A stretch of DNA of 64,000 bases from an uncultured Gammaproteobacteria bacterium (GCA_964358085.1 CAYHNU010000001.1:11220-75219); one strand, 5' to 3'. Counted from the first letter of the stretch, positions 4,301 through 46,223 are shown. Translations and numbers: made by a program. The notes: a model not told the origin generated them from the letters alone.

Positions 4301-4309
4301 CAAGTCTAC

Positions 4310-10413: not shown

Positions 10414-12005
10414 AAAATTTTTTGCTGATTCTCATTCTCGTCCTGGCATCCGTTTTACGGCTTTATAAACTTTCCTCCTATCCCGCCGGCCTGAACGCCG
10501 ACGAAGCGGCTCTGGGCTACAACGCCTACTCACTCCTTCTCACCGGAAAGGATGAGCATGGTCATCCTTGGCCGGTCAATCTGGAATCTTTTGGCGACTT
10601 CAAACCTGCCGGTTACGCGTATCTGCTTATTCCCTTTATCAAAGTTTTCGGCCTGACGGAATTCGCCGTCCGTCTCCCCTCGGCCGTCTTTGGGATATTG
10701 GGAGTGTTATTCATTTATTTATTAACTAAGGAATTAATTAACAAGGACTGTGGATTGATTGCAGCTCTTATGCTTACAATTTCGCCGTGGCACCTGCACT
10801 TCTCCCGCGGCGGTTGGGAAGTCAATGTAGCCACCACTCTCATACTTATCGGCGCCTGGCTTTTTCTTAAAAAACGCTTTGCCCTTTGCACTTTGCCTTT
10901 TGCCCTTTCTATGTACACCTACCAGTCTGCCCGCCTCATCGTTCCCCTCATGGGATTGGGTCTATTTTTTCTCTACCGCCCCAAACGAATTTTTATGGCT
11001 TTTGTTTTGGGCTTCTTACTCCTAATCCCTCTAACCTATAACCTAGTCACTACCGACGCCGCCTCCCGTTTGTCCGGCGTGGGGCTTCTGGCCGATGAGG
11101 GGCCTCTCAACCGGGCCAAGGAATTGCGCGGCCAGCATCCCGCTTGGAGCTCTCCTTTGTCCAGAATTTTACACAACCGCCCGGTTTTATATTCCATCCA
11201 ATTTTTGAAAAACTACACCGACCATTTTTTCGGCGACTTTCTTTTTGTTAACGGCGACGTTATACCCCGTAACCGCGTCCCCGAAACCGGCCTGCTCTAT
11301 TTCACCGACTTTATTTTCTTAGGGTTAGGAGCGGTTTATCTACTACGAACTATGAACCATGAACCAAGAACTAAATTGGTTTGGTTATGGCTTGCCATCG
11401 CCCCAATTGCTGCAGCTCTCACTTTCCAAACCCCCCACGCCCTCCGCGCCCAAAACATGGTCATCCCACTGACAATTATTTTGTCATTTGGCATTTATTC
11501 ATTTTTTATTGATTTAAAATTAAAAATTAAAAATTTAAAATTGTTCCGTTTAGTTATTGGAGGTTTTGTGATAGTTTATCTTTGGCAGGTGGCGCGCTAC
11601 TTGCACGAATATTACGTCCATTATCCCCAAACTTATCCATACGCCTGGGAATACGGCTTTAAAGAACTGGTGGCTTACGTGGGATCGGTTCAGGACAAAT
11701 ATGAAAAGATTTTAGTCACCGACAAATATGATCAGCCATACATCATTTTTCTCTTTTATTCCAAATACCCGCCCCAAAACTTCCAGGGCCGCCATACGCT
11801 GACTTTCCGCGACAAATACAACTTTTCCACTGTTCGTGACTACGACAAATTTCATTTTTCCGCCACCCCCTGGACAAAAGTCAGCGACATCCATTCGTCC
11901 CTCATAGTAGCCGCCCCGGAAGATATTCCCGACGTGGGTGTTAATATAGTTAAAACCATTAATTTCCCAAATGACCAACCAGCGTTTAAAATAATTAGTA
12001 ATTAA
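10410..12005 (+). CDS. GT39/GT83-family (PMT/ArnT-like) glycosyltransferase, paralog 5
   Basis: 'ADEAALGYNAYSLLLTGKDEHG', 'FSRGGWEVNVATTLI', C-terminal 'QPYIIFLFYSKYPPQNFQ'. GTG start overlapping the upstream TGA (GTGA). Confidence 0.7.
   Translation: MKNFLLILILVLASVLRLYKLSSYPAGLNADEAALGYNAYSLLLTGKDEHGHPWPVNLESFGDFKPAGYAYLLIPFIKVFGLTEFAVRLPSAVFGILGVLFIYLLTKELINKDCGLIAALMLTISPWHLHFSRGGWEVNVATTLILIGAWLFLKKRFALCTLPFALSMYTYQSARLIVPLMGLGLFFLYRPKRIFMAFVLGFLLLIPLTYNLVTTDAASRLSGVGLLADEGPLNRAKELRGQHPAWSSPLSRILHNRPVLYSIQFLKNYTDHFFGDFLFVNGDVIPRNRVPETGLLYFTDFIFLGLGAVYLLRTMNHEPRTKLVWLWLAIAPIAAALTFQTPHALRAQNMVIPLTIILSFGIYSFFIDLKLKIKNLKLFRLVIGGFVIVYLWQVARYLHEYYVHYPQTYPYAWEYGFKELVAYVGSVQDKYEKILVTDKYDQPYIIFLFYSKYPPQNFQGRHTLTFRDKYNFSTVRDYDKFHFSATPWTKVSDIHSSLIVAAPEDIPDVGVNIVKTINFPNDQPAFKIISN
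10877..10910. repeat. Intragenic 7-bp tandem repeat (ctttgcN)x4-5 in PMT-like paralog 5
   Basis: ctttgcc, ctttgca, ctttgcc, ttttgcc, ctttct. Encodes FALCTLPFALS. Confidence 0.6.
11344..11376. repeat. Motif ctacgaactatgaaccatgaaccaagaact (encodes LRTMNHEPRT) within PMT-like paralog 5
   Basis: 24 of 27 nt identical to 60661-60687. Related copy at 13756-13785. Confidence 0.7.
11516..11543. repeat. 28-bp heptad element aaaatta-aaaatta-aaaattt-aaaattg, in frame within the PMT-like gene (encodes LKIKNLKL)
   Basis: Differs from the 42937-42964 copy only at the first base of each heptad. Same reading frame. Confidence 0.8.
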
Positions 12006-12006
12006 C

Positions 12007-12843
12007 ATGAAGGACCAAAAGAAATTAGCCATATTTGAAGGGAAAAAGATTCGCCGGCATTGGAATGGTGAACAAGAAAAATGGTATTTCTCTGTCGTGG
12101 ATGTAGTATCCGCTTTAACAGATAGCATCGATCCAAGAAACTATTGGAAGGTTCTTAAAAACAGGTTAAAGAATGAAGGAAGCGAGGTGGTTACAAAGTG
12201 TAACCAACTGAAAATGCAGGCTGCAGACGACAAATATTATCTTACCGATGTAGCCGATACAGAAGTAATGTTTCGTATTATTCAGTCTATTCCTTCTCCA
12301 AACGCCGAACCGTTTAAACTCTGGTTAGCCAGGGTTGGCTATGAGCGGATCGAGGAGTCTCAAGATCCAGAACTGGCCATTAACCGGGCTTTAAAAGCCT
12401 ACCTGAGAAAGGGTTATAGCAGAGATTGGATTAACCAACGTTTAAAAAGCATTGAAATTCGAAAAGCCCTGACGGATGAATGGGAAAACAGAGGAGTTAA
12501 GGCTGGCGACGAGTTTGCCATTCTGACTGATGATATTACCTTTGCTTGGGCGGGGATAACTACCAAGCGGTATAAAAATTACAAAGGGCTTAAGAAGGAA
12601 AACCTGCGAGACAATATGACTAATTTGGAATTGGTCTTGGATATGCTGGCCGAAACGGCTACCACCGAAATTTCCCAAAAGCGTAAATCGCAGACATTTA
12701 TGGGTAATCGGCGAGTTGCGAAAGAGGGTGGAGGCATAGCCGGCAATGCCAGAAAACAGATTGAGGCCAAGACTGGCAGGAGAATTGTGAGTAAATACAA
12801 GTTTATCCCTGCAAGTGCTCGAAAAACATTAAAAAACGTATGA
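12007..12843 (+). CDS. DinD-like / BRO-N domain protein (DNA-damage-inducible protein D family)
   Basis: 278 aa. N-terminal 'FEGKKIRRHWNGEQEKWYFSVVDVVSALTDS...NYWKVLKNRL' matches the BRO-N/DinD pattern. Central 'FAILTDDITFAWAGITTKRYKNYKGLKKENL...LAETATTE' matches my recollection of E. coli DinD. Starts 1 bp after the upstream stop, and its stop overlaps the next start (ATGA). Confidence 0.55.
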   Translation: MKDQKKLAIFEGKKIRRHWNGEQEKWYFSVVDVVSALTDSIDPRNYWKVLKNRLKNEGSEVVTKCNQLKMQAADDKYYLTDVADTEVMFRIIQSIPSPNAEPFKLWLARVGYERIEESQDPELAINRALKAYLRKGYSRDWINQRLKSIEIRKALTDEWENRGVKAGDEFAILTDDITFAWAGITTKRYKNYKGLKKENLRDNMTNLELVLDMLAETATTEISQKRKSQTFMGNRRVAKEGGGIAGNARKQIEAKTGRRIVSKYKFIPASARKTLKNV

Positions 12844-13619
12844 AAAAAATAAAACTCTCCGTAGTTCTGGCCACTCACAACGAGGAGGCCAATATTGTGA
12901 GATGTCTTGAGTCGGTCAAAAACATCGCCGACGAGATAGTTATCGCTGACGAACAATCTTCGGATAAAACAGTGAAGATTGCCAAAAAATTTGCAGCCAA
13001 AGTTATCTCTGTCCCACATAACGATAACTTTCATATCACTAAAAATATCGCTATTGCGTCAGCAACAGGGGACTGGATTCTCCAACTGGATGCCGACGAA
13101 GTCGTCTCCCCCGAACTGGCCCGGGAAATCCAATCCCACCTGAAAGGTGGCCGGAAGGACTCCTTTCAGGTGAACGGCTATTGGATGAACAGAAAAAATT
13201 GGTTTTTAAATCGGTTCTTAACCAAAGGCGGTCAATACCCGGATCCCACTCTCCGCTTCTACCGCCGGGGACTAGGACACCTTCCGGCCGCAAATGTCCA
13301 CGAACAAGCTACCGTCAATGGACCGGTCGGCCGCCTCAAGCACGATTTACTTCACTATCACCACACCACCTTTTCTAAATACATGGATGGATTCAACCGC
13401 TATTCTTCTTTCGCCGCTTCTCAAATGCAAGCTCGTCATGAACCCCTTAATCTACTTAATGCACTTAATCACTTAATCCCTCTCCCCCTATTTACTTTTC
13501 TGAATATCTATTTCCGTCATCTAGGTATGGTTGATGGATATTCCGGATTTGTTTTTGCCCTCTTTTCCGGCCTCACCCATGCCGTTGCCTACATTAAATA
13601 CTGGCAAAGGTCATTATGA
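12840..13619 (+). CDS. GT2 glycosyltransferase, polyprenyl-phosphate sugar synthase-like (ArnC/GtrB-like, C-terminal TM helices)
   Basis: 'KLSVVLATHNEEANIVRCLESV', 'QLDADE' DxD-type motif, C-terminal hydrophobic pair 'LIPLPLFTFLNIYF...FVFALFSGLTHAVAYI'. Confidence 0.6.
   Translation: MKKIKLSVVLATHNEEANIVRCLESVKNIADEIVIADEQSSDKTVKIAKKFAAKVISVPHNDNFHITKNIAIASATGDWILQLDADEVVSPELAREIQSHLKGGRKDSFQVNGYWMNRKNWFLNRFLTKGGQYPDPTLRFYRRGLGHLPAANVHEQATVNGPVGRLKHDLLHYHHTTFSKYMDGFNRYSSFAASQMQARHEPLNLLNALNHLIPLPLFTFLNIYFRHLGMVDGYSGFVFALFSGLTHAVAYIKYWQRSL
13446..13477. repeat. Intragenic tandem repeat (cttaatNNN)x4 in the GT2 gene (encodes LNLLNALNHL)
   Basis: cttaat recurs at 13446, 13455, 13464 and 13472. 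Confidence 0.6.
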
Positions 13620-14605
13620 TCAAAGTCGGTTTTATTACATCTCCCCTGCACGACGCCAATGCTGCCCGCGGCGTCGGCTCCTACACCCGCCGCCTCCTAG
13701 AAAGACTCAAAGTTCAAAGTTCAAGGTTCAATATTGAGATTTTAGAAATTAAAAATGACCATGAACTACAAACTATGAACTATGAACTCGTCCACTACCC
13801 ATACTTCGACTTATTTCGGCATACCTTGCCAATTTTTAATAAATCCAAAATTGTAGTCACCCTTCACGATGTGATACCGTTGGAATTTCCTGATCACTAC
13901 CCCCCCGGTCTCCGCGGCAGGCTTAATCTGCAGTTGCAAAAATTGGCCCTGGCCAACGTAGAACGTGTCATTACCGTTTCCTATGCTTCAGTACAAGCAA
14001 TACGAAAGTATCTGCTTGTACCTCACGCTAAACTCAAACTGGTTTACGAAGCCGCCGACCCCATGTTTAAAAAGATTTCTAAACCCAAAAACAAATATCA
14101 TCTGCCCAAAAAATTCGTTCTCTACGTCGGAGATGTGAATTGGAATAAAAATATACCCAATTTAGTTAAAGCTTGTGAACAAATAAATTACCCATTGGTA
14201 ATAGTGGGTAAACAAGCAACTGAAGTAGAAAAACTGGACCTAAACCACGCTGAACTGCGGCATTTACAAGGAGTAGATTGGTCGGCCGTTATCCGCTCGG
14301 GTTTTGTGGCAGACGAAGATTTGGTACATATCTACAATTTGGCCACCGTTTACTGCCAGCCGTCCTTATCCGAAGGCTTTGGCCTGCCTGTCGTGGAAGC
14401 CCTGGCCTGCGGCACCCCTGTAGCCTGCAGCAATACTTCATCCTTGCCGGAAATAGCGGAGGATAACGCCACATATTTCAATCCCTATGACGTCGATGAT
14501 ATGTCCCAAGCTATAATTAACGCTAAGCCTCCACAAAGCAAGCCAATGTTTTCATGGGAGGAAACTGCCAAATTGACTCTGATGGTTTATCGGGAAATAT
14601 TATGA
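13616..14605 (+). CDS. GT4 (GT-B fold) glycosyltransferase
   Basis: C-terminal 'QPSLSEGFGLPVVEALACGTPVACSNTSSLPEIAED' is the typical GT4 E-x7-E region. ATGA overlap at both ends. N-terminal region carries repeat insertions (13708-13785). Confidence 0.65.
   Translation: MIKVGFITSPLHDANAARGVGSYTRRLLERLKVQSSRFNIEILEIKNDHELQTMNYELVHYPYFDLFRHTLPIFNKSKIVVTLHDVIPLEFPDHYPPGLRGRLNLQLQKLALANVERVITVSYASVQAIRKYLLVPHAKLKLVYEAADPMFKKISKPKNKYHLPKKFVLYVGDVNWNKNIPNLVKACEQINYPLVIVGKQATEVEKLDLNHAELRHLQGVDWSAVIRSGFVADEDLVHIYNLATVYCQPSLSEGFGLPVVEALACGTPVACSNTSSLPEIAEDNATYFNPYDVDDMSQAIINAKPPQSKPMFSWEETAKLTLMVYREIL
13708..13785. repeat. Composite repeat block in the GT4 N-terminus: (caaagtt)x3, then tta gaa att aaa aat core, then cat gaa cta caa act atg aac tat gaa ctc
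   Basis: Direct read. Encodes KVQSSRFNIEILEIKNDHELQTMNYEL. Confidence 0.7.
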
Positions 14606-15714
14606 AGTTTACAGCAATTCTAAAATATTTTGTCCTCTGGCAGGCGGCAATAATCATTATGGCCATTGCCGCCCAATATTCTTCCCTGCCTTTGCGGGAG
14701 ACGTATTTAGGCAGCGGTACCCAAGGGTATATGGAGAAACCTTGGTTCTACTCCCGGGAGAACTTCGACGGAATGCACTACACGTACATCGCCCGCCGGG
14801 GCTATGGCTACTCCCAACAGGCCTTCTTCCCCCTTTATCCGGCCATCATGCGCCGCATCATGACTTTGCCGATTCTCAACAACGCTGTTCTTGCTGGGAT
14901 CCTAGTCTCGGTAGTATCTTTCTTAGCCGGACTATACCTTTTTACCAAGCTCGCTCTATTAGATTACTCTCCTACAGTGATCAAGTGGACTGTTTTAGCA
15001 CTTTTGTTTTTTCCCACCAGTTTCTTCTTCACCTCCATTTATACCGAAGGTCTGTTCTTTTTCCTGACCATCGCCGCCTTTTACTCCGCCCGCACCCGCC
15101 GCTGGTTGCTGGCAGGCATATTTGGGGCCTTGGCCAGCTACACCCGCTTCATCGGCATTTTTCTCCTTCCCGCACTTCTTATCGAATGGTGGCAGCAGGG
15201 CCGCCGCTTTAGGCACTTCTTGCCTCTTCTTTTGATTCCACTTGGCCTGGGAATTTACATGAATTATCTAAATAAGACAGTAGGGGATCCGTTGGCCTTT
15301 TTCCACGTCCAGGTCAATTTTGCCCAGTTAAGAAGCGAGAAACTGATTCTCCTCTACCAAGTCTTCTGGCGTTACGTAAAAATGCTCTTTACCGTTAACC
15401 GGTCTGACCCCCTGTATTTGACCATTATCCTGGAACTTGTCACCGGAGTAGCCTTTCTAGCCACCACTGTCTACTCTTTCATCAAGCACCGTCTATCCTA
15501 CGCCGTCTTCAACTTCCTAGCCTACCTCACTCCCACTCTTACCGGTAGCTTCACATCTTTGCCCCGTTACGTCCTCCTCTGTTTCCCGTCGTTCTTGCTT
15601 ATCGGCGAATTATCGTCCCGCTCTCCCTTGGCTCGCAAGATCATTTTCGGCACCTTCGCCCTGGCCTTCATTATTTTTCTCTCCCTCTTCGCCCGGGGAT
15701 ATTGGGTATCATAA
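14602..15714 (+). CDS. GT-C membrane mannosyltransferase candidate, PIG-V (GT76)-like
   Basis: Multi-TM. 'FDGMHYTYIARRGY' resembles the conserved WDxxHYLxIAxxGY motif of the PIG-V/Mannosyl_trans2 family. ATG at 14602 overlaps the upstream TGA. Confidence 0.45.
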   Translation: MKFTAILKYFVLWQAAIIIMAIAAQYSSLPLRETYLGSGTQGYMEKPWFYSRENFDGMHYTYIARRGYGYSQQAFFPLYPAIMRRIMTLPILNNAVLAGILVSVVSFLAGLYLFTKLALLDYSPTVIKWTVLALLFFPTSFFFTSIYTEGLFFFLTIAAFYSARTRRWLLAGIFGALASYTRFIGIFLLPALLIEWWQQGRRFRHFLPLLLIPLGLGIYMNYLNKTVGDPLAFFHVQVNFAQLRSEKLILLYQVFWRYVKMLFTVNRSDPLYLTIILELVTGVAFLATTVYSFIKHRLSYAVFNFLAYLTPTLTGSFTSLPRYVLLCFPSFLLIGELSSRSPLARKIIFGTFALAFIIFLSLFARGYWVS

Positions 15715-16458
15715 ATGAATACAGCTGATTTATCGGTGGTCATGCCGGTATATAAACAAGAAAATAAAGTGGTGCTGTATCTTAAAAATTTGGATAAAAT
15801 TTTGGCAGAATTAAACATAAACTATGAAATTATTTGTGTAGTTGATGGTTTTTTAGATAATACTTTTAAAAATGCAAAAAAATACATTAATAAAAGAATT
15901 AAAGTAATTGGTTATGAGAAAAACCAGGGTAAAGGTAACGCGGTTAGATTTGGAATGTCACACGCGAAAGGAAAGATAATAGGTTTTGTAGACGGAGGAT
16001 TTGACCTTAAATATACATCGATTCCCTTAGCTTTGAAACACATGAAGTGGTATGACGCGGATATTATTATTGGGTCCAAACGCCATCCAGCATCCAAAGT
16101 AGCATATCCCTGGCAAAGGCGAATTTTGTCCTGGGGATATCAGATAGGAGTGAGGTTGTTATTTGGAATTAATATCCGGGATTCACAAGTAGGCATTAAG
16201 TTTTTTAAACGCGAAGTGATAAAAAAAATAATGCCTAAACTTTTGATAAAGGAGTTTGCTTTTGATATCGAAATGTTAGCGGTTGCCAACAGAATGGGCT
16301 TTTCCCGGATTTATGAATTTCCTATTGAATTGGAATTAGAATTTGGCACATCTTCAATTGCATCAATTGGTTTTTTTAAAACTGTTTGGAACATGCTGTG
16401 GGACACCTTGGCCGTCTTTTACCGTCTGGAAATCCGGCACTACTACGACGATGTGTAA
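15715..16458 (+). CDS. GT2 glycosyltransferase (short, DPM1/GtrB-like)
   Basis: 'LSVVMPVYKQENKV', 'VVDGFLDNT', 'GKGNAVRFGMSHAKG', 'FVDGGFD'. 247 aa soluble GT-A. Confidence 0.6.
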   Translation: MNTADLSVVMPVYKQENKVVLYLKNLDKILAELNINYEIICVVDGFLDNTFKNAKKYINKRIKVIGYEKNQGKGNAVRFGMSHAKGKIIGFVDGGFDLKYTSIPLALKHMKWYDADIIIGSKRHPASKVAYPWQRRILSWGYQIGVRLLFGINIRDSQVGIKFFKREVIKKIMPKLLIKEFAFDIEMLAVANRMGFSRIYEFPIELELEFGTSSIASIGFFKTVWNMLWDTLAVFYRLEIRHYYDDV

Positions 16459-18208: not shown

Positions 18209-19212
18209 ATTTTCCCGGAGTTAGCATCATTATTCCGGTTTTAAATAACGAACGTACTATCAAAAAGTGCTTGGAAGGTATTACGCTTCAAGATTATCCT
18301 AAAAACAAAGTCGAGGTCCTGATTCTTGATGGGGGAAGCACTGACAAAACCATAGCAATCGCAAAATCTTTTAGAAGCATAAACCTCCACATTGTAAAGG
18401 GTGGTTATCGCAACAATATGGAGGCCAGGAGATCTATAGGCTTCCGAAAAGCAAAGTACAATTTAGTATTGGTTTTGGATTCGGACAATTACTTATACAG
18501 TTCAGATAGTCTTCGAAAGTTAGTCAAGCCCATGCTCGGCGAGGATCATCTGATTGGGTCATTCACTCTTCACTACCACTATGATTCCCAATTGCCGTTT
18601 TTTACTAGATATATATCTTTATTTGGCAACCATGATCCCGTTGCCTATTATCTACACAAAGCTGATCGGCAAAAAATTACTCAAAAAACTTGGCCACACA
18701 AAAACCAAATTGTGTCTACAAAACCGGAATGGACTGTCGTCCAATTTAATAAACAAAATTTCCCAACCCTCGGCAGCAACGGGTTTCTCATAAACAAGAA
18801 ATATCTGCGCTTAAAAAATCTTAAACCGGAGAATTTTTTACATACTGATATTCTCTATGATCTTCTCGATAGGGGGTTAAATAAATATGCGGTGGTTGAT
18901 GCTCAAGTTGTTCACGATAGCAGTTCCAGCATTAAACGACATTTAGAAAAAAGGTATGAATATATGCAACTTCACCATATTTCTCTGGCTAAAATAAGGC
19001 GCTATAAAGTCTTCGATTCCAACTCGCCTCAGGATCGTTTCCATCTTACCAAATTTATTTTTTATACCATTACTATTGTCAAGCCTCTCCATGAATCAAT
19101 CGAGGGATTCTTCAAAAAACCCGACCTCGCCTGGTTTATTCACCCCTTTTTGTGCTGGGCATTTTTAATCACTTATTCATTTGCAGTAGTCAATCCTCAC
19201 AAAAAAAGATGA
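18190..19212 (+). CDS. GT2 glycosyltransferase with C-terminal membrane segment
   Basis: 'VSIIIPVLNNERTI', 'LDGGSTDKT', 'LDSDN'. C-terminal hydrophobic 'WFIHPFLCWAFLITYSFAVV'. Confidence 0.6.
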   Translation: MDQKDINFPGVSIIIPVLNNERTIKKCLEGITLQDYPKNKVEVLILDGGSTDKTIAIAKSFRSINLHIVKGGYRNNMEARRSIGFRKAKYNLVLVLDSDNYLYSSDSLRKLVKPMLGEDHLIGSFTLHYHYDSQLPFFTRYISLFGNHDPVAYYLHKADRQKITQKTWPHKNQIVSTKPEWTVVQFNKQNFPTLGSNGFLINKKYLRLKNLKPENFLHTDILYDLLDRGLNKYAVVDAQVVHDSSSSIKRHLEKRYEYMQLHHISLAKIRRYKVFDSNSPQDRFHLTKFIFYTITIVKPLHESIEGFFKKPDLAWFIHPFLCWAFLITYSFAVVNPHKKR

Positions 19213-23404: not shown

Positions 23405-23453
23405 TATACAGCCAAAATACTTTGTTGTTTGGTGTTAGAATAAGAAGTTATAC

Positions 23454-25216: not shown

Positions 25217-25291
25217 TCAATTATACAGAAGAACTTACAACATCTGTATAATTGTCTTGTGGTACAAACTTTTATACAATTCGTGCGGTTT

Positions 25292-25648: not shown

Positions 25649-25692
25649 ATCATACCTCTTTACACTTTATAAAAATATGATATATATGACGT

Positions 25693-27502: not shown

Positions 27503-27503
27503 A

Positions 27504-30099: not shown

Positions 30100-30116
30100 T
30101 ATAATATAATCCCCTC

Positions 30117-34040: not shown

Positions 34041-34078
34041 GTTGTTAATTTATACTCGTATCAATTATATCCTACAAT

Positions 34079-34759: not shown

Positions 34760-35520
34760 ACCCGTTTACAAAGACTCCGTTTTATCACTATTTTTTAGCT
34801 TTTGACTTAATTTCTAATCCAACAGCTAAAGTGTTAGACTTCGGCTGCGGCAGCGGCCAGTTCCTAGGAAAGTTACACGCGAAGGTCAAAAATGTATACG
34901 GTTACGACGTGGACCCGGAAAAAATTAACTTAGCACAACATCTCCATCCCCATGTCAAATTTAAATTAGGTAGAGTTGGTGCGCCTTTACCATATCCAGA
35001 TGCAACATTTGATGTTGTCAACATGTTTCATATCTTAGAACATGTATCCTCGGAAACAATGGCCATATTAGAAACCCATAGGCTGCTTAAAAAAAATGGC
35101 CTTCTTTTTCTAGCTTCACCTTATCAGGGACTTTTTTCTTGGGCAGATGCGGCGAACCTTCGATACCGCTTTCCCAACCTTCACAAATGGTTTTTTATTA
35201 CTTTTTTGGGAAAATATGAATATGAAAGACGATTTGTTAGTCGTCGTTCAATTGGAATGTATGGCGACTGTACAGATAATCGAAACTGGCACAAGCACTA
35301 CACCGAAGGAGAATTGCGCCAACTACTTGGAAATAAATTTACCATTACTGAAGTTCATAAGTTTTCGCTCTTTTATCCATTCCTGCTTATTCCCTACAAC
35401 TTAATCAACTATTTTTTTAAACCCAAATTCAACTCCATTCTTTGGCTGATTCACTTGGACAACTTAATTAATGCCGGAGGATGGTCTTACAATTTCCTAA
35501 TTGTAGCCAGAAAAAAATGA
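34756..35520 (+). CDS. Class I SAM-dependent methyltransferase
   Basis: 'VLDFGCGSGQFLGKL', 'FDVVNMFHILEHV'. ATGA overlap. Confidence 0.6.
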   Translation: MNPFTKTPFYHYFLAFDLISNPTAKVLDFGCGSGQFLGKLHAKVKNVYGYDVDPEKINLAQHLHPHVKFKLGRVGAPLPYPDATFDVVNMFHILEHVSSETMAILETHRLLKKNGLLFLASPYQGLFSWADAANLRYRFPNLHKWFFITFLGKYEYERRFVSRRSIGMYGDCTDNRNWHKHYTEGELRQLLGNKFTITEVHKFSLFYPFLLIPYNLINYFFKPKFNSILWLIHLDNLINAGGWSYNFLIVARKK

Positions 35521-37508
35521 AATGGTTTCTCACTAGCATTGTTCTATCCTTAAGTTTAGTAGCCATTTGGATGGGGCCCAAAAAGATGTTGGCTCATGCG
35601 GAAGAAGGTCTGCCATTTTATAATCCCTCACGCACTTTCCAAATATACAAGTATATCTGGCAAGACTCGAATTTGGGATTCATTAACCCCTTCTTAACTT
35701 CCAGGCTCACGCTTTACGGGTTCTCTGCCTGGCTTAATTCATTTGAGATCCCTAGCCAGGAGTTGTTTTTCTTTATATTAATTTTAACCCCCCTTGTCGT
35801 TATTCCTCCTCTATCCCAAACTCTCTTTCCCACCTTAAATGGCTCGGTTGGAAAATTTGCCGCTCTTTTTTATGTTTTTAACCTATTTGTCCTAACTCAA
35901 GTCTGGCACCGCTTCATCTACCCGCTGATTTTCCTGTGGTCATATCTCCCTTTGTTTCTTCTACTCTGGCTTAAATGGTTGGAAACAAGAGAAAAGAAGT
36001 ATTTATTTTATTTCATATTATCCAATTTCATTTTTTCAGATGTTTACGGATTAACCTCTTCCATCTTTGCTCTCTGGATACCGGCTGGAATTCTCTGGTT
36101 CAAGAACAGGCGAATCATTCCGGCCGTGGTAGCAATATTTCTCTGGTTAGTGACAACCGTTTGGTGGTGGTACCCATTAGTTGCCATAAAAGATAATCGC
36201 TTTAATAAATTTTTAAACCCGGCTCAAAATTTAATCTCACTTGTAGATGTCAGTAAATACTATCTTAATTCCGACATTTTATTATTAAAGCAAAAATATT
36301 ATTTTTCTCCCCAAACCATCTGGTTCAACTTTTTTTCCCGCCTACCCATAAATTATCTTAGCTGGATTTTTCCCATCTTACTTGCAATTGGTTCAGTTTG
36401 GGCTATCAAATCCAGATCAGGCAGACTATTAATTATTTGGCTTGTAATTGGTTGGTTTTTTATCAAAGGAGCCAATCCTCCTTGGGGTACCCAATTTTAC
36501 GAATGGTTGTTTAAGACCTTTCCCTTCACCATGGTCGTACGCAATCCCTACGAGAAACTTGGAGTGATTTTTCTTCTCCCTTATTGTCTGCTCATGGCTT
36601 TCGGTCTTTCCCGCATTCCACTCCGCTTCGGTAAGATACTTGTGATTTTTCTTGTCGGTTTTGTTTTACTGCGCCCCATGTGGACAGGCCAGGTTTTTTC
36701 CGGCTACCAAGTCCAAGTGCCTTCTTCATATAGTTTAGCAAATAGTTATCTTAACTCCGGTAGCAATTTACGTCTTTTGCAACTACCCTTTTTGCACGGA
36801 GCCGGGACCCAATACACCTGGGGTTATGGCGGCGAAGAACCGTCCAACTTCTTCTTTGATCGTCCATCCCTCTCTGGCACTTACTTTTCTCCCACCGATC
36901 CCTACTTATTTCTTTACAAATACATGCGTTCTCCCAAGACTTACCGCCTGCTCCAGCTCCTTGCTGTAGACACCATAGTTCTTCACAAAGATACTTTACC
37001 GGGACCAGCTTATCAGGAAAACTATGCTGGCTCTCGGGCCCTGCTTAGCCAAATGGAGCATATAAGTCTTGCTAAAACATTCCCCGATCTAGATATTTAC
37101 CAATTAAATCCCAATTTGCCAATTGGCTGGGGATATTTATCAAATCGGACGTTTTCCATCCCATCTCTTTCAGACGGCTTTGATTTGGTAGTCAACAACG
37201 ATTTGTTTAAACTCCATAGCGACTCGTTTGTGCTTTCACCCCAAAACCCAAAGAATCTTGGCGATAGCTTACCAAACTACACCATTACCAAGTTGTCACC
37301 AATTCGATACCTTTACCGCATCAAGCAAGCCACCTCCCCTTATATACTTATTTTGTCCCAAAATTTTAATCTCGGCTGGACGGCCGCCATAGATAAAAAA
37401 GAACTAGAAAATCATTTCCCAATTAATGGGTACGCCAATGGTTGGCTAGTTGATAAACCTGATGACTATGTTATTGATGTAAGTTTTAAAGCCTGGCCAT
37501 GGGATTAA
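35517..37508 (+). CDS. Large polytopic membrane protein with C-terminal extracytoplasmic domain (GT-C-like candidate)
   Basis: About 663 aa. N-terminal multi-TM domain. C-terminal '...FNLGWTAAIDKKELENHFPINGYANGWLVD' resembles the C-termini of the giant proteins ('GFANGWEIN', 'GYANLWEIN'). ATG at 35517 overlaps the upstream TGA. Confidence 0.5.
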   Translation: MKWFLTSIVLSLSLVAIWMGPKKMLAHAEEGLPFYNPSRTFQIYKYIWQDSNLGFINPFLTSRLTLYGFSAWLNSFEIPSQELFFFILILTPLVVIPPLSQTLFPTLNGSVGKFAALFYVFNLFVLTQVWHRFIYPLIFLWSYLPLFLLLWLKWLETREKKYLFYFILSNFIFSDVYGLTSSIFALWIPAGILWFKNRRIIPAVVAIFLWLVTTVWWWYPLVAIKDNRFNKFLNPAQNLISLVDVSKYYLNSDILLLKQKYYFSPQTIWFNFFSRLPINYLSWIFPILLAIGSVWAIKSRSGRLLIIWLVIGWFFIKGANPPWGTQFYEWLFKTFPFTMVVRNPYEKLGVIFLLPYCLLMAFGLSRIPLRFGKILVIFLVGFVLLRPMWTGQVFSGYQVQVPSSYSLANSYLNSGSNLRLLQLPFLHGAGTQYTWGYGGEEPSNFFFDRPSLSGTYFSPTDPYLFLYKYMRSPKTYRLLQLLAVDTIVLHKDTLPGPAYQENYAGSRALLSQMEHISLAKTFPDLDIYQLNPNLPIGWGYLSNRTFSIPSLSDGFDLVVNNDLFKLHSDSFVLSPQNPKNLGDSLPNYTITKLSPIRYLYRIKQATSPYILILSQNFNLGWTAAIDKKELENHFPINGYANGWLVDKPDDYVIDVSFKAWPWD

Positions 37509-38245
37509 AAACAAAAAAATTTAAAAATTGGATCATATCATATCTAAATGAAGCTGAATTAGACGAAATGTTAAAAGAACTTTATGAAAAGAAATACTAC
37601 GATTGGCAAAGTTCAAAAAGTGATCCTGTAATTTTCGATGTAGGCGCATTGATTGGAGAAACAGTTCTATATTTTAAAGAGTTATATCCCAAGGCTCGAA
37701 TCACTGCCTTTGAGCCCAGTCCTCGTAGTTTTAAACTGCTCGAAAGAAACGTTTCTCAAAATCACCTTTCTAATGTCCGTTTAATTAATGTCGCGGTGGC
37801 AAAAAATAACGGGAAAATGAATTTTTATATCAGTAAATCTGAAAATAATCCCTGGGGGAGGGGAGATTCGTTGAAAGAAAACAGATTCAATAACAAGAAA
37901 AAATCTAAAGTAATTAAGGTTTCAACAGTGAAGCTGTCCGATTATATAAAAGAGAAAATAGACTTGCTTAAACTTGACATCGAAGGAGCCGAGACTGAAG
38001 TTATTCAAGAAATTGAACCAAGGCTAAAACATGTTAAACAAATAATTTTAGAATTTCATGCCAGCGTTTATAATCCTGAAAATAGTTTACCTAAAATCAT
38101 GGAAATTTTGAAAAAACATGGATTTAAGACTAAAATCTATCTTAGCCGTTGGTTATTGCCGAATTTTGCTGCCAGTTCAATACTAATATTTTTATCAATC
38201 CTTAAAATAGATGAATATTGGCTTCGTATCTATGCAAAGCATTAA
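37499..38245 (+). CDS. FkbM-family SAM-dependent methyltransferase
   Basis: 'IFDVGALIGETVLYFKELYPKARITAFEPSPRSF', 'KLDIEGAETEV'. Confidence 0.6.
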   Translation: MGLKTKKFKNWIISYLNEAELDEMLKELYEKKYYDWQSSKSDPVIFDVGALIGETVLYFKELYPKARITAFEPSPRSFKLLERNVSQNHLSNVRLINVAVAKNNGKMNFYISKSENNPWGRGDSLKENRFNNKKKSKVIKVSTVKLSDYIKEKIDLLKLDIEGAETEVIQEIEPRLKHVKQIILEFHASVYNPENSLPKIMEILKKHGFKTKIYLSRWLLPNFAASSILIFLSILKIDEYWLRIYAKH

Positions 38246-38804
38246 TGAACATTTTATTTCGTCGGGTAAGTTGATCAAGCAATCACTATCCAAGTTACGC
38301 GACCCCATCAGTCAAGCAGCCAAGTTAATCTCTAAAACTTTTAACTCCGGAGGAAAACTTTTGATTTGTGGTAATGGGGGAAGTGCGGCCGATTCTCAAC
38401 ATTTTGCAGCTGAACTGGTAGGGCACTATTTGACGGAACGAAAACCATTAGCGGCCATAGCCCTTACCACCAACACTTCTTCGTTAACAGCAATAGGAAA
38501 CGATTACGGATTTGATAAAGTTTTTTCTCGCCAAGTTGAGGCATACGCAACAAAAGGCGATGTGCTTTTTTGTATTAGTACCAGCGGTAACTCCGCAAAT
38601 GTAATTGCCGCCGCCAAAACTGCTAAATCATTACAAGTCAAAACAATTGGTCTGACAGGCAACAAGGGAGGTAAGCTAAAATCCCATTGCGACATTAATC
38701 TCATTGTTCCATCAAACCATACTCCCTTTATTCAGGAAATTCATCTCGTTACTATACACATAATCTGCGATCTGGTAGAATCAGGTCTTCTTTCTTCGAT
38801 ATGA
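38232..38804 (+). CDS. gmhA: Sedoheptulose-7-phosphate isomerase (SIS domain, GmhA-like)
   Basis: 'GGKLLICGNGGSAADSQHFAAELVG', 'GDVLFCISTSGNSANVI'. About 190 aa. Confidence 0.7.
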   Translation: MQSINEHFISSGKLIKQSLSKLRDPISQAAKLISKTFNSGGKLLICGNGGSAADSQHFAAELVGHYLTERKPLAAIALTTNTSSLTAIGNDYGFDKVFSRQVEAYATKGDVLFCISTSGNSANVIAAAKTAKSLQVKTIGLTGNKGGKLKSHCDINLIVPSNHTPFIQEIHLVTIHIICDLVESGLLSSI

Positions 38805-40522
38805 AAGTCGTAATCTTATGTGAAGGCTTTGGCACTAGGCTGTCGTCAATAGTTTCCGATAGACCCAAACCTTTAGCCCCGATTGCGGGAAAACCTTTCA
38901 TAGAACACGTCATAAAATGGCTTTGTAGGTACGGTTACAAAGACATAATTTTCTGTGTTAGCTATAAGGCTGACCAAATTATAAAATTTGTGGGAGATGG
39001 TAAGAAATTCGGTATCAAGGCAACATATTCCAGAAGATCCCAACCTTCGGGAACAGGTGGGGCTATCAAGTTTGCCAGTCAACTCTTAAATGGCAAAGAT
39101 GAAAGAGTATTGGTACTTAATGGAGACACTTTATTTGACATTAACTTAAATAAATTTGTTGAATTTCATGATAAAAATAAATCGTTTGCAACTATCGCCC
39201 TTAGTCACGTTTTGGATGTGCATCAATACGGGGAAGTCAGTATCGATTCCGGCTATCAACTAACCAAATTCAGCGAAAAAAACCCAGAAAGCCTATTAAA
39301 TCCCCATGCCGGATTGGTTAATGGTGGTGTCTATCTGCTCAGCCGGGAAGCCTTAAATATATTAAGCAATCTCCAGCCCCCTTTCTCGATAGAGAAAGAC
39401 TTTTTCTCTGTTCAGGTTAACACCCAAAAGATCTTCGGATACGTTTCAGACATAACCCATTACGATATGGGGACACCGTCTGGTTATCGCAAAACTGACA
39501 GAATTTTAAGCGGACAGGAAGAAATCATTATTCGCAGCCGGGCTCCGTTAAGAATTTCTTTTGGAGGGGGAGGCACTGATGTGCCGCCTTTCGATCAAAA
39601 ATATGGCGGCTGTGTGCTTAATTGCACGATCAATAAGTATGTTTATGGTTTACTGAAGCTTCGTGACGACAAAAAAATAAGATTGGTTTCTTCAGACTAT
39701 CGTTTGTCGGTTGTATACAGTGACATTAAGCACTTGGAATTTGATGGACACCTGGACCTCATAAAAGGAATAATCAAGAGGGTAGATGTCAATTATGGAT
39801 TTGAACTTGAAATCAGATCGGATGTCCCACCCAATAGCGGGATGGGATCAAGCGCCAGCGTTTGTGTAGCCGTTATAGGTCTGTTTAACCATTTATTAGT
39901 TGAAAGCAAAATGACTAAATCTCAAATCGCTGAACTTGCATACAAAGTAGAAGTGGAAGATCTCAAAAACCATGGAGGAAGACAGGATCAATACGCTTCG
40001 GTATATGGGGGGCTTAATCTTTTTGAATTCAGAGGAGGCGATTTTGTCAAAGTTAGCCCTTTAAACCCAAAGAGAGAGATCTTTCTCGAGTTAGAAAGGA
40101 ACACTGTATTAGTCTACACGGGGAAAAGAGGAATTTCCGGATTACAACATGACAATAATGAAATTTCTCTACGCAAAAGAACCGAATATTTACAGGCAAT
40201 AAAAATTTTAGGATATGAATCATTTGATTCTTTAATGAGGGGGGATATAAATCGGTTCGGAAATATACTTGAGGAAACTTGGGAGTTAAAGAAAAAAGCA
40301 TTCCCTCAATCAAGCAACAAGTATATTGATTCTTTGTATTTAGCTGCAAAAAAAGCCGGCGCCATTGGAGGGAGAGTAGCCGGTGCGGGGGGCGGGGGAC
40401 ATATGGTCTTTTATTGCCGTCCCGGGACTGAGCATAAGGTGACTAAAGTGTTACAAGCCATGGGTACCAAGTCAGTAGATTTTAGTTTTGATTACCAAGG
40501 ATTAGAAACATGGGAAGTTTGA
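38801..40522 (+). CDS. Bifunctional heptose-1-phosphate nucleotidyltransferase (N-terminal, HddC-like) / D-glycero-D-manno-heptose-7-phosphate kinase (C-terminal GHMP kinase, HddA-like)
   Basis: N-terminal 'MKVVILCEGFGTRLSSIVSDRPKPLAPIAGKPFIEH' (NTP_transferase). C-terminal 'PPNSGMGSSASVCVAVIG' (GHMP ATP motif) and 'AGAGGGGHMVFYC'. 573 aa fusion. ATGA overlap with gmhA. Confidence 0.6.
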   Translation: MKVVILCEGFGTRLSSIVSDRPKPLAPIAGKPFIEHVIKWLCRYGYKDIIFCVSYKADQIIKFVGDGKKFGIKATYSRRSQPSGTGGAIKFASQLLNGKDERVLVLNGDTLFDINLNKFVEFHDKNKSFATIALSHVLDVHQYGEVSIDSGYQLTKFSEKNPESLLNPHAGLVNGGVYLLSREALNILSNLQPPFSIEKDFFSVQVNTQKIFGYVSDITHYDMGTPSGYRKTDRILSGQEEIIIRSRAPLRISFGGGGTDVPPFDQKYGGCVLNCTINKYVYGLLKLRDDKKIRLVSSDYRLSVVYSDIKHLEFDGHLDLIKGIIKRVDVNYGFELEIRSDVPPNSGMGSSASVCVAVIGLFNHLLVESKMTKSQIAELAYKVEVEDLKNHGGRQDQYASVYGGLNLFEFRGGDFVKVSPLNPKREIFLELERNTVLVYTGKRGISGLQHDNNEISLRKRTEYLQAIKILGYESFDSLMRGDINRFGNILEETWELKKKAFPQSSNKYIDSLYLAAKKAGAIGGRVAGAGGGGHMVFYCRPGTEHKVTKVLQAMGTKSVDFSFDYQGLETWEV

Positions 40523-41337
40523 AATGCTTACTAGCTAATACTGGGGATATGGCGCTAAAACGCCGAGCCAGAAGAATAATTACCGAGCTAGACCCCAAGT
40601 CCGGAGACAAGATTCTGGATATCGGTTGTGGAGATGGCTACTATCTTCATATTCTCTCCCACTTAAACATTTCCAACCTGAACCTGTCCGGCACAGATAA
40701 TGACATTAATGGGTTAAATAAAACCAGAAAAAATCTCGATAATCCGAAAATCAAAGTTTATCCTGGCGATTTGATGAAAAAACTCCCATTTGAAAATAAC
40801 AGTTTCGATAAAGCAGTTATGTCCGAAGTAGCCGAGCATTTGCCAAACGACATCAAAGGACTCAAGGAAGTCTACCGAATTCTTAAGCCAGGTGCGATTC
40901 TAAGTCTCACGGTGCCCCACGCAAACTATCCCCTTCTTTGGGACCCACTAAATTGGCTACTCGAAAGGTTATTCGGTGTTCATGTTAAATCTGGTTTCTT
41001 TGCCGGACTTTGGAATCAACATATTCGGCTATATCAGCCCGCTCAAATAGAACGCGTTTTGAAAAAAGCCGGTTTCAAAGTAGAGAAACTTGAATCACTC
41101 ACCTTTTGGTGTTTACCCTTTAACCATTATTTGGTCAACCTCGTCGCACGCTATCTTGCCCGTCAATATAGACAGGGTACTCCAAATGTTTCACTTAATA
41201 AATTTACAATCGCTTCTGCCAAACCATTTTTACTAAATGCTGCCTTTTACATTGTTAATCTCCTAGATCGTCTTAACGATATTTTGCAGCCAAGAGGCAT
41301 TGGAGTTTCGGTATTTGTAAAAGCGATTAAAGTATGA
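40510..41337 (+). CDS. Class I SAM-dependent methyltransferase
   Basis: 'KILDIGCGDGYYLHIL', 'FDKAVMSEVAEHLPND', 'LKPGAILSLTVP'. Confidence 0.6.
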   Translation: MGSLKCLLANTGDMALKRRARRIITELDPKSGDKILDIGCGDGYYLHILSHLNISNLNLSGTDNDINGLNKTRKNLDNPKIKVYPGDLMKKLPFENNSFDKAVMSEVAEHLPNDIKGLKEVYRILKPGAILSLTVPHANYPLLWDPLNWLLERLFGVHVKSGFFAGLWNQHIRLYQPAQIERVLKKAGFKVEKLESLTFWCLPFNHYLVNLVARYLARQYRQGTPNVSLNKFTIASAKPFLLNAAFYIVNLLDRLNDILQPRGIGVSVFVKAIKV

Positions 41338-42158
41338 AGCAGCTAATAGCAAAGATTTGCGACAATCTTTGTTTTGATAAAATATTTTTACTTACTGAGA
41401 ATTTGTCTCTTTTGGAGAAAGTAAAGTATACATTCAGAAAATATTTAACAATAATATTTGGACGGAAAGAAATAGTATATTTAGGTAAGGTTTTCAAATT
41501 TGATAACTCCTTTACTCCAGTGCTTTTGCAAAGTTATCCCCATGAGATTGGTACATTGGATAGAGAAATAAATTTGAATACGATTCATTCGGTTTTGGAT
41601 ATAGGGGCAAATATAGGTCAGTGGTCATTCACATTGAAGTCTTTATTTTCTCATCTGAACGTAATATCACTTGAGCCTAACCCTAAAGTTTTTCCCCTGT
41701 TGCGCGAGAATGCAAAGGGTTTTTCTAAGTGGAAATGTTACAATTTTGGGGTAGGTGATGGGGGTAGACACAAGTACATATATTATTCAGGGAATGGCTC
41801 TTCAGAAGCTAGTATTTATAACAAAATTAGCACCAACAATAAGAAAAAAGATAAAATAGTACCAGTACGCCTAGTAGTTTTAAATAATGGAAAAATAGGT
41901 GGAACTCAAATACCCAATTCGTTTGATTTAGTAAAAATTGACACTGAAGGGTCTGAGCTTGAAGTGTTACATTCAATTAGTAAACTTCATTTTAAGTACT
42001 TGGAAGTAGAAGTATCACTTAAACGAAATAGAGGAGTAACTGTAAAGGATGTCAAAAACTTTTTTAAAAGGCATACTCGTTTTCAGCCAAAATTATTACA
42101 TTTAGATATATTTAATAGTAATTCACCTGTAGCTGATGCAATTTTTTCATTAACATGA
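41334..42158 (+). CDS. FkbM-family SAM-dependent methyltransferase
   Basis: 'VLDIGANIGQWSFTLKSLFSHLNVISLEPNPKVF', 'KIDTEGSELEVL'. ATGA overlaps at both ends. Confidence 0.6.
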   Translation: MKQLIAKICDNLCFDKIFLLTENLSLLEKVKYTFRKYLTIIFGRKEIVYLGKVFKFDNSFTPVLLQSYPHEIGTLDREINLNTIHSVLDIGANIGQWSFTLKSLFSHLNVISLEPNPKVFPLLRENAKGFSKWKCYNFGVGDGGRHKYIYYSGNGSSEASIYNKISTNNKKKDKIVPVRLVVLNNGKIGGTQIPNSFDLVKIDTEGSELEVLHSISKLHFKYLEVEVSLKRNRGVTVKDVKNFFKRHTRFQPKLLHLDIFNSNSPVADAIFSLT

Positions 42159-43363
42159 AGATAAATAAGATTTATTTTTGGTCAATGGCTTCCCATGGCG
42201 CTGGAATTTCTGGAGGCGACAGAATCTTTATGGAATTTGTCAAAAGATGGAGGACAAAGCATCCAGTTACGGTTGTAACTTGGGCAGAAGGGGAGTCCAT
42301 GATGGCTAGAAACAACCTTCTTGAATCCGCAAATGTTTCCTTTCAACGTCTATTGGTTCCAAAAATTATTCGCTTTAATTTTTTATTGTGCTATCTATAT
42401 AGAATAATTATTGGTATTTTCACTGCACTAACCATGCGTCTTGATAGCCCATTAGAACTGTATTTATATTCCTCTTCCGAGTTTTGGATGGACTCACTAC
42501 CTTCTTTTATTTTAAAACTTCGTTACCCCACTATCAATTGGATTGCAACCTGGTACCAAACCGCTCCAAATCCTCTTGTTGGTTTTTCAAATGGCCGTTA
42601 TCGCATAACGGCTTTATTACTATGGCTTTCTCAATTACCAATTAAGCCATTAATTGGTAATTTTGCCGATGTTGTTTTGGTAAACAACGATACCGAAAAA
42701 AAGATATTCCCAAAATCTCAAACAATTGTAGTTTTGGGCGCAGTTGACACCAAACTGATTGAAACCTATATTGCTAAAAATCCTAAAACAAAAAAGAAGT
42801 ATGCAGCTGTCTTTCAAGGTAGATTTCATCCCCAAAAAGGAGTAGTGGAACTCATAGATGTATGGAAAAAAGTGGTTGAGAAAATCCCGGATGCCAAATT
42901 GGCCATGATAGGGGATGGCCCGCTTATGGAAAGTGTGAAATTAGAAATTAGAAATTTGAAATTGGAGAATAATGTTAAATTGTTAGGATATGTTTTTGAC
43001 GGCGATGAGAAATACAAACTATTTGCTCAAAGCAAAATTGTAGTTCACCCGGCCTTTTATGATTCTGGGGGTATGGCCTCGGCTGAAGCTATGGCCTTTG
43101 GTTTACCTTGCATAGGCTTTAATTTACCCGCTTATGAATCGTATTATCCCAAAGGTATGATTAAAATCCCCATCGGTGACTTGAATTCCTTTGCTGAAAC
43201 GATAGTTGACCTACTTAAAAATAATTCCAAACGAAATCTCGTGGGGAATCAGGCGGGAAAATTTATTCGTGGGTCTTATTCTTGGGACTATCGTGCTCGA
43301 GAGATTTTACGGCAAATAGTTGGAACGACAAATCCGGAAAGAAAAAAAGTAGAATCTCAGTAA
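42155..43363 (+). CDS. GT4 glycosyltransferase
   Basis: 'FQGRFHPQKGVVELIDVWKKV', 'HPAFYDSGGMASAEAMAFGLPCIGFNLPAY'. Contains the 28-bp (gaaattN)x4 element at 42937-42964. Confidence 0.6.
   Translation: MKINKIYFWSMASHGAGISGGDRIFMEFVKRWRTKHPVTVVTWAEGESMMARNNLLESANVSFQRLLVPKIIRFNFLLCYLYRIIIGIFTALTMRLDSPLELYLYSSSEFWMDSLPSFILKLRYPTINWIATWYQTAPNPLVGFSNGRYRITALLLWLSQLPIKPLIGNFADVVLVNNDTEKKIFPKSQTIVVLGAVDTKLIETYIAKNPKTKKKYAAVFQGRFHPQKGVVELIDVWKKVVEKIPDAKLAMIGDGPLMESVKLEIRNLKLENNVKLLGYVFDGDEKYKLFAQSKIVVHPAFYDSGGMASAEAMAFGLPCIGFNLPAYESYYPKGMIKIPIGDLNSFAETIVDLLKNNSKRNLVGNQAGKFIRGSYSWDYRAREILRQIVGTTNPERKKVESQ
42937..42964. repeat. 28-bp heptad element gaaatta-gaaatta-gaaattt-gaaattg, in frame within the GT4 gene (encodes LEIRNLKL)
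   Basis: Direct read of the sequence. Near-identical copy at 11516-11543. Confidence 0.8.
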
Positions 43364-46207: not shown

Positions 46208-46223
46208 ATGTTAAGATTCTAGC

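Follow-up and report, generated by a model that had tools for sequence, protein, structure and literature searches.

In-frame heptanucleotide arrays at hot spots of glycosyltransferase genes in a groundwater contig and its Microgenomates relatives

Rickettsia palindromic elements are palindromic insertions of approximately 100-150 bp that are carried in frame by genes, are absent from orthologues and come to lie on protein surfaces. Tandem repeats are known to undergo concerted evolution via slipped-strand mispairing or misaligned gene conversion, usually with variation in copy number, and diversity-generating retroelements (DGRs), which are common in the candidate phyla radiation (CPR), alter a variable region of about 100 bp in an adenine-specific, non-periodic manner by means of a template repeat and a reverse transcriptase. 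The present study concerns a stretch of 64,000 nucleotides (CAYHNU010000001.1:11220-75219 of GCA_964358085.1; hereafter the window, with positions counted from its first letter), in which two nearly identical AT-rich 28-mers, one in a PMT-like and the other in a GT4 glycosyltransferase gene, had been taken in a preliminary description for copies of one small mobile element that tolerates translation. Both are members of a large class of in-frame heptanucleotide arrays, each consisting of four to five units over about 28-37 nt. This class is probably a feature of the Microgenomates, within the CPR, concentrated in a small number of hot spots of GT4 and GT-C (PMT-like) genes, where units would be rewritten in place.

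Two kinds of heptanucleotide repeat already described in bacteria merit comparison. In neuO, the phase-variable capsule O-acetyltransferase gene of Escherichia coli K1, the 5' leader carries 3-53 perfect units of (AAGACTC)n, the copy number being highly polymorphic and 65.6% of genomes being in the OFF state (PMC13001214). The arrays of the window resemble it in being coding heptanucleotide tandem repeats that are read in three phases, that would keep the frame at certain unit counts and that lie in genes for surface-glycan modification; they differ in having only four to five, often imperfect, units, a fixed length and internal structural positions, with none OFF among 132 arrays. Heptameric simple sequence repeats (SSRs) are, according to the summary in PMC4692102 (citing Mrazek 2007), over-represented in many bacteria, slippage related to the polymerase footprint having been proposed as the cause; examples are GGGNATC in Xanthomonas and Nostoc and the short tandemly repeated repetitive (STRR) heptamers of cyanobacteria, to which TAACTGA in the Beggiatoaceae may be added (PMC4679880). 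They share with the present arrays an excess specific to period 7 and, in Xanthomonas, a preference for four units, whereas they are intergenic, under-represented in coding sequence, variable in copy number and composed of one or a few genome-specific, G-rich units that form G-quadruplexes. The arrays described here, by contrast, lie mostly within open reading frames (ORFs), draw on dozens of units that are poor in G, and are conserved in position and length. No description of such arrays for the CPR was found in the searchable literature.

Period-7 arrays in the window and in related loci

The best homologues of the window genes belong to Candidatus Amesbacteria (Microgenomates, Patescibacteria/CPR), and the window sequence itself forms part of a 111-kb contig (GCA_038055335.1) obtained from Hainich groundwater, 0.1 µm fraction. 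Arrays were sought in the window with Tandem Repeats Finder and a simple lag scan, and also in two sets of related loci: a genome set of 80 loci around PMT-like orthologues from species-representative genomes of Amesbacteria, Woesebacteria, Shapirobacteria, Blackburnbacteria, Collierbacteria, and others (1.5 Mb), and a metagenome set of 80 independent loci around GT4 orthologues (0.93 Mb). With an array defined as at least four units and no more than three mismatching comparisons, the combined related loci (2.5 Mb) gave 132 period-7 arrays, 125 of them in genes.

The excess is confined to period 7. The window alone holds 7-10 imperfect period-7 arrays of about four units each, against 0-1 at periods 5, 6 and 8-12, and these are built from at least five unrelated units (RAAATTA, GAACYAT, CTTTGCC, TCAAAGT, and AACCTAK). 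When runs of N were excluded, the genome loci together with the window yielded 85 arrays at period 7, 27 at period 6 and 7 at period 8, the corresponding counts for the metagenome loci being 47, 2 and 0. Perfect runs of at least 21 matches are exclusively of period 7, as are the perfect tracts of 28-37 nt (CACCAAT x5, ATTGGAA x4-5, GACATTG x4, AAATTAC x4, and TACTTTT x5), which are the longest perfect tracts within ORFs, most arrays being imperfect. Long open frames span 106 of the 132 arrays, compared with 61% of random windows, and none of the 132 lies at a frameshift junction. On the coding strand the units are rich in A and poor in G (9% G); those rich in T occupy membrane helices and those rich in A occupy turns, as is expected if each base of a unit serves once as a second codon position.

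The claim that the two flagged 28-mers share more nucleotide identity than chance or codon usage would provide was upheld once the arrays were set against their own proteins. When all codons of 1816 genes were resampled synonymously, using the codon usage of each locus and keeping the proteins intact, only 3.8 period-7 arrays (maximum 6) were left against the 125 observed, so that the periodicity is a property of the DNA and not an effect of AT-rich codon usage; at period 6 the same procedure gave 14.4 against 19, which the proteins explain. Codon shuffling within the ORFs of the window left exactly one array in every shuffle against seven observed, the survivor apparently lying outside the shuffled ORFs. 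It may still be argued that peptides rich in K, L, I, N and E, when written in AT-rich codons, automatically resemble AAATT repeats: the GT4 peptide pattern VKxxIxxLxL is ancestral, AAATTNN is the commonest unit class, and array peptides retain a lag-7 identity of 0.50 after codon resampling, against a background of 0.27. Yet this account, already refuted by the resampling, would also have to accommodate perfect arrays of 28-37 nt made of units that are not AT-rich (CACCAAT, GACATTG, and GCAAAGT) and the lack of any excess at periods 6, 8 and 9, and it deserves hardly any credence. An amphipathic or coiled-coil heptad was likewise rejected, the hydrophobic residues of AAATTNN falling at i and i+2 of seven, not at a and d, and the periodicity depending on synonymous sites.

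As to the two 28-mers themselves, the preliminary description was accurate. They are identical at 24 of 28 positions with all differences at base 1 of each heptad, they lie on the + strand in the PMT-like ORF 10410-12005 and the GT4 ORF 42155-43363, and in both cases base 1 of the heptad is a third codon position, the peptides being FFIDLKLKIKNLKLFRL and LMESVKLEIRNLKLENN, or, in context, (K)LKIKNLKL and (K)LEIRNLKL respectively. A search of the 64 kb with the degenerate 28-mer, allowing up to three mismatches, returned these two sites alone, and no match was obtained in 100 shuffles. They are alike because both belong to the commonest unit class (TT plus five purines, or AAATTNN, the latter accounting for about 24 of the 85 arrays of the genome loci and window), are read in the same phase and carry the same forced A-to-T change. 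Uninterrupted (AAAATTA)n or (GAAATTA)n would yield TAA or TAG in every third unit, which is unit 3 in the shared phase, and it is because these stops must be avoided that unit 3 of both arrays contains ATTT. Since a heptamer read in three phases specifies a fixed cycle of seven residues, identical peptides recur wherever one unit recurs, as with AAATTGG (KLEIGNW), CACCAAT (QSPITNH), and AAATTAC (KLQITNY).

Related cores had also been reported from three further genes. Those at 8257-8285 and 13742-13756 were confirmed, whereas the one at 6760-6784 is only a partial core inside a perfect 16-nt tandem repeat. This repeat (6750-6784; ATTAGGTCAATTAGAA x2.2) is read in two different phases, as HSLGQLEIRSIRNF, within an intact PMT-like/PTPS_related ORF (5857-7407). 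Its 18-mer TTAGGTCAATTAGAAATT recurs at the N-terminal hot spot of GT4 genes in two related loci, L007 (14169) and L167 (5602), where it belongs to a 9-nt periodic QLxQLxQLEI array; with about 4-5 chance 18-mer matches estimated for a comparison of 64 kb with 5 Mb, the sharing is not significant alone and was not used as evidence.

Two other identities for the arrays were discarded. A cyanobacterial origin (STRR/HIP1) does not fit a window that has no GCGATCGC and whose contig belongs to a Hainich groundwater metagenome-assembled genome of Amesbacteria, and a structured RNA or tRNA was rejected as neither tRNA genes nor Rfam families above the gathering score were detected in the 64-kb window.

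Position, length and exchange at the hot spots

The arrays recur at particular places in their genes. The 28 arrays found in 81 PMT-like orthologues cluster in four regions of the alignment, and the GT4 family likewise has four hot spots, with an array in up to 35% of orthologues and none at lags of 6, 8 or 9. What occupies a given hot spot is a different matter. At PMT hot spot 1, orthologues of equal length carry arrays of other units, namely CGTTTTG/AGCTTTG, TTGTATC, GCCTTTT x4, and CTCTTTG x4; at PMT hot spot 2 the window has (CTACGAA)(CTATGAA)(CCATGAA)(CCAAGAA), and L062 and L007, again of equal length, have (CTACTCA)n and (CCAAAGA)n. Arrays of other units stand at the position of the GT4 28-mer in approximately 27 of 80 orthologues, the majority having no array there. 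The alleles of this GT4 helix include an AAATTAG type (the window, L092, and L104), an AAATTAA type, perfect AAATTAC x4 (KLQITNYKLQ), GCAAAGT (AKCKVQS), a GTGAAAA type, and AAATCAC. Unit identity within an array is 0.79-0.86, compared with 0.46-0.61 for the same unit position between orthologues and 0.72-0.76 for the nucleotide sequence of the whole gene. This is the signature of concerted evolution: the units of an array change together. In that respect the arrays behave as other concerted tandem repeats do, their units being more alike within an array than across orthologues, with the difference that they homogenise at a fixed total length in a translated, structured segment.

It is this constancy of length that bears most directly on the explanation first offered, a mobile or insertionally active element of about 28 bp that tolerates translation and stands in frame in unrelated genes, after the manner of Rickettsia palindromic elements. 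Near-identical stretches of 21-29 nt in unrelated window genes speak for such an element, as do the sharing of arrays within genomes above expectation (see below) and the variable length of PMT hot spot 3. An insertion of 28 bp, however, cannot keep the frame, 28 not being a multiple of three, and segment length is conserved at the GT4 hot spot and, of three PMT-like hot spots tested, at two. The GT4 segment from GDGPLM to GYV measures 84 nt in all 80 orthologues and the array peptide aligns without gaps to 24 protein homologues. In the AlphaFold model of the GT4 protein (predicted local distance difference test, pLDDT, 87.7; local pLDDT 98), the array spans the last part of helix 258-267 together with the turn that leads into strand 274-278; this is the standard helix of the C-terminal Rossmann domain and not a surface-loop addition. 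Insertion is thus largely refuted for the GT4 site.

The PMT-like site is less clear-cut. In the AlphaFold model of this protein, residues 369-378 are placed at the turn joining helices 342-372 and 376-408, and all three of its main arrays are predicted at helix-turn-helix junctions. Array-bearing and other sequences do not differ in length at the first two PMT hot spots. At the third, which holds the flagged 28-mer, those with an array are on average about 3.5 amino acids longer (p = 0.002), in a turn that is generally variable in length; the closest relatives are 3-9 amino acids shorter than the 44 of the window, but because 44 is also a common length among more distant aligned orthologues, an insertion here is possible and not established. 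What does not stand is the notion of one copied element. The units number in the dozens and are unrelated, orthologous sites hold arrays of different units at identical length, and comparison of the sequences flanking the two 28-mers revealed no flank similarity, no inverted or terminal repeats, and no target duplications. Short repeated DNA in unrelated coding genes with the frame intact is indeed what Rickettsia palindromic elements and the present arrays have in common, but the latter lack a palindrome, show no presence/absence polymorphism at the GT4 site and are predicted there to lie in a core helix. On this evidence a mobile element is very improbable. A general model of in-frame expansion by 21 bp, from one unit to four, was also rejected, since sequences with an array have no extra length at PMT hot spots 1 and 2 or in the GT4 segment, and since ORFs also contain perfect arrays of five units.

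Two further observations on these sites may be recorded. In L062 (~11100-11150) and L008, the heptamer array of PMT hot spot 3 is replaced by two in-frame palindromes that are mutually reverse-complementary, AAAGGAGACTCCTTT ... AAAAGGAGTCTCCTTTT in the former and AAGGATTATCCTT ... AAAAGGATAATCCTTTT in the latter, encoding KETPFKFKRSLLF and KDYPFSPFSLKRIILF. The 87-nt region of three abutting arrays in another GT4 ORF of the window (13702-13788, LERLKVQSSRFNIEILEIKNDHELQTMNYEL) corresponds in the L167 orthologue to unrelated sequence of similar length.

Whole array alleles also pass between lineages. The GT4 genes of L100 and L111 have flanks that are approximately 90-100% identical on either side of a patch of about 63 nt with only 52% identity, and the L100 patch matches L113. 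Such a patch between near-identical flanks implies exchange, and gradual neutral divergence with homogenisation is insufficient as the sole source of the unit differences. With L167 and L168 the window shares 92-100% identity in its arrays but only 73-75% in the genes; around the array at 11516-11543, 57 of 59 nt are identical in the L167 orthologue, against 73% for the gene overall. The genes are mosaic, and discrete array alleles are shuffled between lineages. More generally, pairwise sliding-window identity among the GT4 orthologues of L100, L111, L113 and L116 ranges from about 0.35 to 1.0 along the 1.2-kb gene, that of L113 and L116 running from 0.98-1.0 to 0.5-0.6 and back to 0.98. Such mosaicism of GT4 genes points to recombination as a frequent event between diverged alleles of groundwater Microgenomates.

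Array sequence is shared between genes of one genome as well. In the window, 11345-11373 and 60656-60684 are identical at 27 of 29 positions, and 11021-11049 and 63945-63973 at 25 of 29, each pair lying in unrelated genes. A first test of copying within genomes, based on consensus units, was negative (p = 0.29), with a background raised by orthologous arrays. When only pairs from different gene families were compared, with permutation stratified by family and GC, 8 of 110 within-locus pairs were at least 19/21 identical against 1.57 expected (P < 1/3000). The resemblance of arrays in unrelated genes of a genome thus exceeds expectation (P about 0.001), and some sharing of array sequence within genomes, whether by copying at the DNA level or by convergence, is real; it is most simply read as ectopic short-patch conversion among the arrays of a gene cluster, the alternative being a genome-specific bias.

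Possible origin and maintenance of the arrays

The mechanism that would probably underlie the class is one of local rewriting. Misalignment or template switching in a 7-nt register, during replication or repair, would overwrite a unit with its neighbour and, less often, with one drawn from a comparable array in a different gene of its cluster. The outcome would be short-patch conversion with no net change in length, from which selection would keep those products that interrupt none of the three phases and suit the surrounding structure, and homologous recombination would move whole array alleles between lineages.

Several points weigh against this proposal and should be given due consideration. 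Neither a slippage intermediate of ±7 nt nor a copy-number variant was seen in the six contigs identical to the window or among the 132 arrays, none of which lies at a frameshift, and the mechanism does not account for the preference for register 7 over 6 or 8. Every locus was sampled around two gene families, so that statements on whole genomes are extrapolations. The sharing test rests partly on the window, which was chosen for just such a pair; without it, 5 of 89 pairs remain against a background of 1.9%. The longer array-bearing sequences at PMT hot spot 3 may reflect some net insertion there. Finally, arrays are nearly absent from most gene families, which generic polymerase or mutational bias alone does not explain. 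The density reaches 44 arrays per 100 kb of coding sequence in the GT4 family of ORF 42155, the highest found, and is 13.7 in the GT4 family of ORF 13616, 8.1 in the GT-C family and 6.0 in one GT2 family; it is 0.3 in a family of 200 genes with no Pfam match (window member 35481-37508) and 0.5 for the 548 genes that belong to none of the 22 largest families. Either the origin of arrays is rare and arrays then persist and spread at sites tolerated by the protein, or they are targeted or selected.

Could the arrays be contingency loci, in which slippage by ±7 nt switches surface-glycosylation genes OFF and ON as in neuO, concerted evolution being a by-product? In-frame heptamer repeats in glycosyltransferase genes, which are typical targets of phase variation, invite the comparison, for which neuO supplies the precedent (PMC13001214), and steps of -7 followed by +7 would homogenise units at unchanged length. 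Long intergenic arrays are also present just upstream of a PMT-like gene in L052 (3738-3791) and L054 (9911-9958); these consist of some 7-8 GTGAAAA/GTGATAA units outside long ORFs, 50-100 nt from the PMT-like orthologue, and constitute the only promoter-proximal setting of potentially phase-variable character. On the other hand, the in-gene arrays have merely four to five, mostly imperfect, units, are predicted to form core structural elements and not N-terminal leaders, and are frameshifted in none of 132 cases, as compared with 65.6% of neuO genomes OFF (PMC13001214). At the level of contigs, the six representatives of the window population (L001-L006, recovered from different samples) match the window at 100% identity save for one single-base gap in L004; because of this identity they are uninformative on copy-number or strain variation. 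Classical phase variation of the neuO type is accordingly unlikely as the main role.

More room may be allowed, though still as an improbable alternative, for arrays that are selected as such, be it as a hypervariation device for protein segments or as cis elements in mRNA or DNA for a genome-specific factor. Their extreme specificity for gene family and position would then find an explanation, as would the persistence of hot spots across Amesbacteria, Woesebacteria, Shapirobacteria and related groups, the discrete alleles common to several lineages with identity above background, and the recurrence of the same units across genes of one cluster; for a hypervariation device in particular, one homogenised unit substitution alters about three residues together. 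Against this, hot spots have no conserved unit or core even within one genome, no enzyme or template could be linked to the arrays, Rfam gave no match, and persistence combined with tolerance could produce the same distribution without function.

A further step, speculative and rather doubtful, would be a dedicated or semi-dedicated Microgenomates process that rewrites defined glycosyltransferase segments of 28-37 nt as heptamer arrays by templated conversion in a 7-nt register. If true, conversion would be templated within arrays and between arrays of the same cluster, with each base of a unit read in all codon positions; a single substitution, once spread, would alter about three residues, amounting to cassette-like, constant-length hypervariation of surface or turn segments of the enzyme. 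The DGRs invite comparison here, since in CPR genomes they too make a short protein segment of fixed length locally hypervariable, but the variation described here is periodic in 7 nt and not adenine-specific. No dispersed repeat of about 100 bp covering the arrays was found in the window, reverse transcriptase genes not having been systematically searched for. Episymbiotic CPR bacteria would thereby have a way of diversifying proteins locally that has not been described before and that differs from both DGRs and ON/OFF phase variation.

Genomic setting and biological meaning

The window ORFs with Pfam matches encode mostly enzymes of glycosylation, namely GT2, GT4 and GT-C glycosyltransferases, methyltransferases, and sugar-nucleotide enzymes. 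Its composition is uneven. The first 16 kb, which include a set of tandem GT-C paralogues, have a GC content of 0.44-0.51, and over the first 12 kb the GC skew is strongly negative (-0.17 to -0.24); in the region 46000-52000, around two large ORFs with no Pfam match (46224-48449, 741 amino acids; 48427-51630, 1067 amino acids), the GC content falls to 0.31-0.34. The tandem set (4271-12005) comprises five consecutive, co-directional GT-C/PMT-like paralogues of approximately 500-530 amino acids with overlapping start and stop codons, four of which hold a conserved 63-nt block encoding DEAALGYNAYSLL..G.DE (repeat family D1). Arrays of hot spot 2 are present in at least two of the five, at 8257 and 11342. 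The arrays of the window and the two genes hosting the flagged 28-mers are collected in Table 1.

Table 1. Coordinates of the window arrays and of the genes that carry the two flagged 28-mers
Feature	Position	Strand	Peptide, gene or remark
Array AAAATTA x2, AAAATTT, AAAATTG	11516-11543	+	LKIKNLKL; hot spot 3 of the GT-C/PMT-like gene
Array GAAATTA x2, GAAATTT, GAAATTG	42937-42964	+	LEIRNLKL; in the GT4 gene
GT39/PMT_2-like (GT-C) membrane glycosyltransferase ORF	10410-12005	+	PMT_2/PMT/STT3 matches; at least four heptamer arrays
GT4 ORF	42155-43363	+	Glycos_transf_1 match
Array TTAGAAA TTATAAA TTAGAAA GTAGAAA	8257-8284	+	RNYKLESRN; PMT-like paralogue 7362-8864
Short array CTACTAT CAACTAT GAACTAT	8451-8471	+	PMT-like paralogue 7362-8864 (repeat family D10)
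Array CTTTGCC CTTTGCA CTTTGCC TTTTGCC	10877-10904	+	FALCTLPFAL; PMT hot spot 1, start of transmembrane helix
AACCTAT-type heptamer-like stretch	11021-11049	+	LIPLTYNLV; 25/29 identical to 63945-63973 (repeat family D7)
Array ACTACGA ACTATGA ACCATGA ACCAAGA	11342-11374	+	LRTMNHEPRTK; PMT hot spot 2
Three abutting arrays: TCAAAGT-type, TTAGAAATTAAAAAT, ATGAACT-type	13702-13788	+	87 nt; N-terminal part of GT4 ORF 13616-14605
Array CCACGAA CTACGAA CCATGAA CCATGAA	60654-60685	+	HELRTMNHELY; GT2-like ORF 60427-61077
Array TATAACC TAACACC TAGAACC TATAACC	63943-63970	+	YNLTPRTYNL; GT4-like ORF from ~63328 past the window end

The practical consequences concern the way in which such sequences are interpreted. 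The seeming translated mobile element is the work of a DNA-level repeat process in situ, and comparable calls of in-frame elements in CPR genomes should be checked for period-7 arrays. Array peptides such as KLEIGNWKL, LRTMNHE, and QSPITNH create spurious short matches between unrelated proteins and can mislead clustering. In the present data, single-linkage BLAST clustering at an E-value of 1e-8 gathered 1207 of 1816 proteins into one cluster, to which array peptides (KLKIKNLKL, KLEIGNWKL, and LRTMNHE) may have contributed spurious links.

The combination encountered in these glycosyltransferase genes is an unusual one, with microsatellite-like arrays whose position and length are conserved while their sequence is not, and which lie in core structural elements of enzymes. 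If the proposed process is real, it would offer a natural system for slippage and conversion in a 7-nt register, would bear on the long-noted and unexplained excess of heptameric SSRs in bacteria, and may be a source of rapid variation in cell-surface glycosylation among uncultivated episymbionts.

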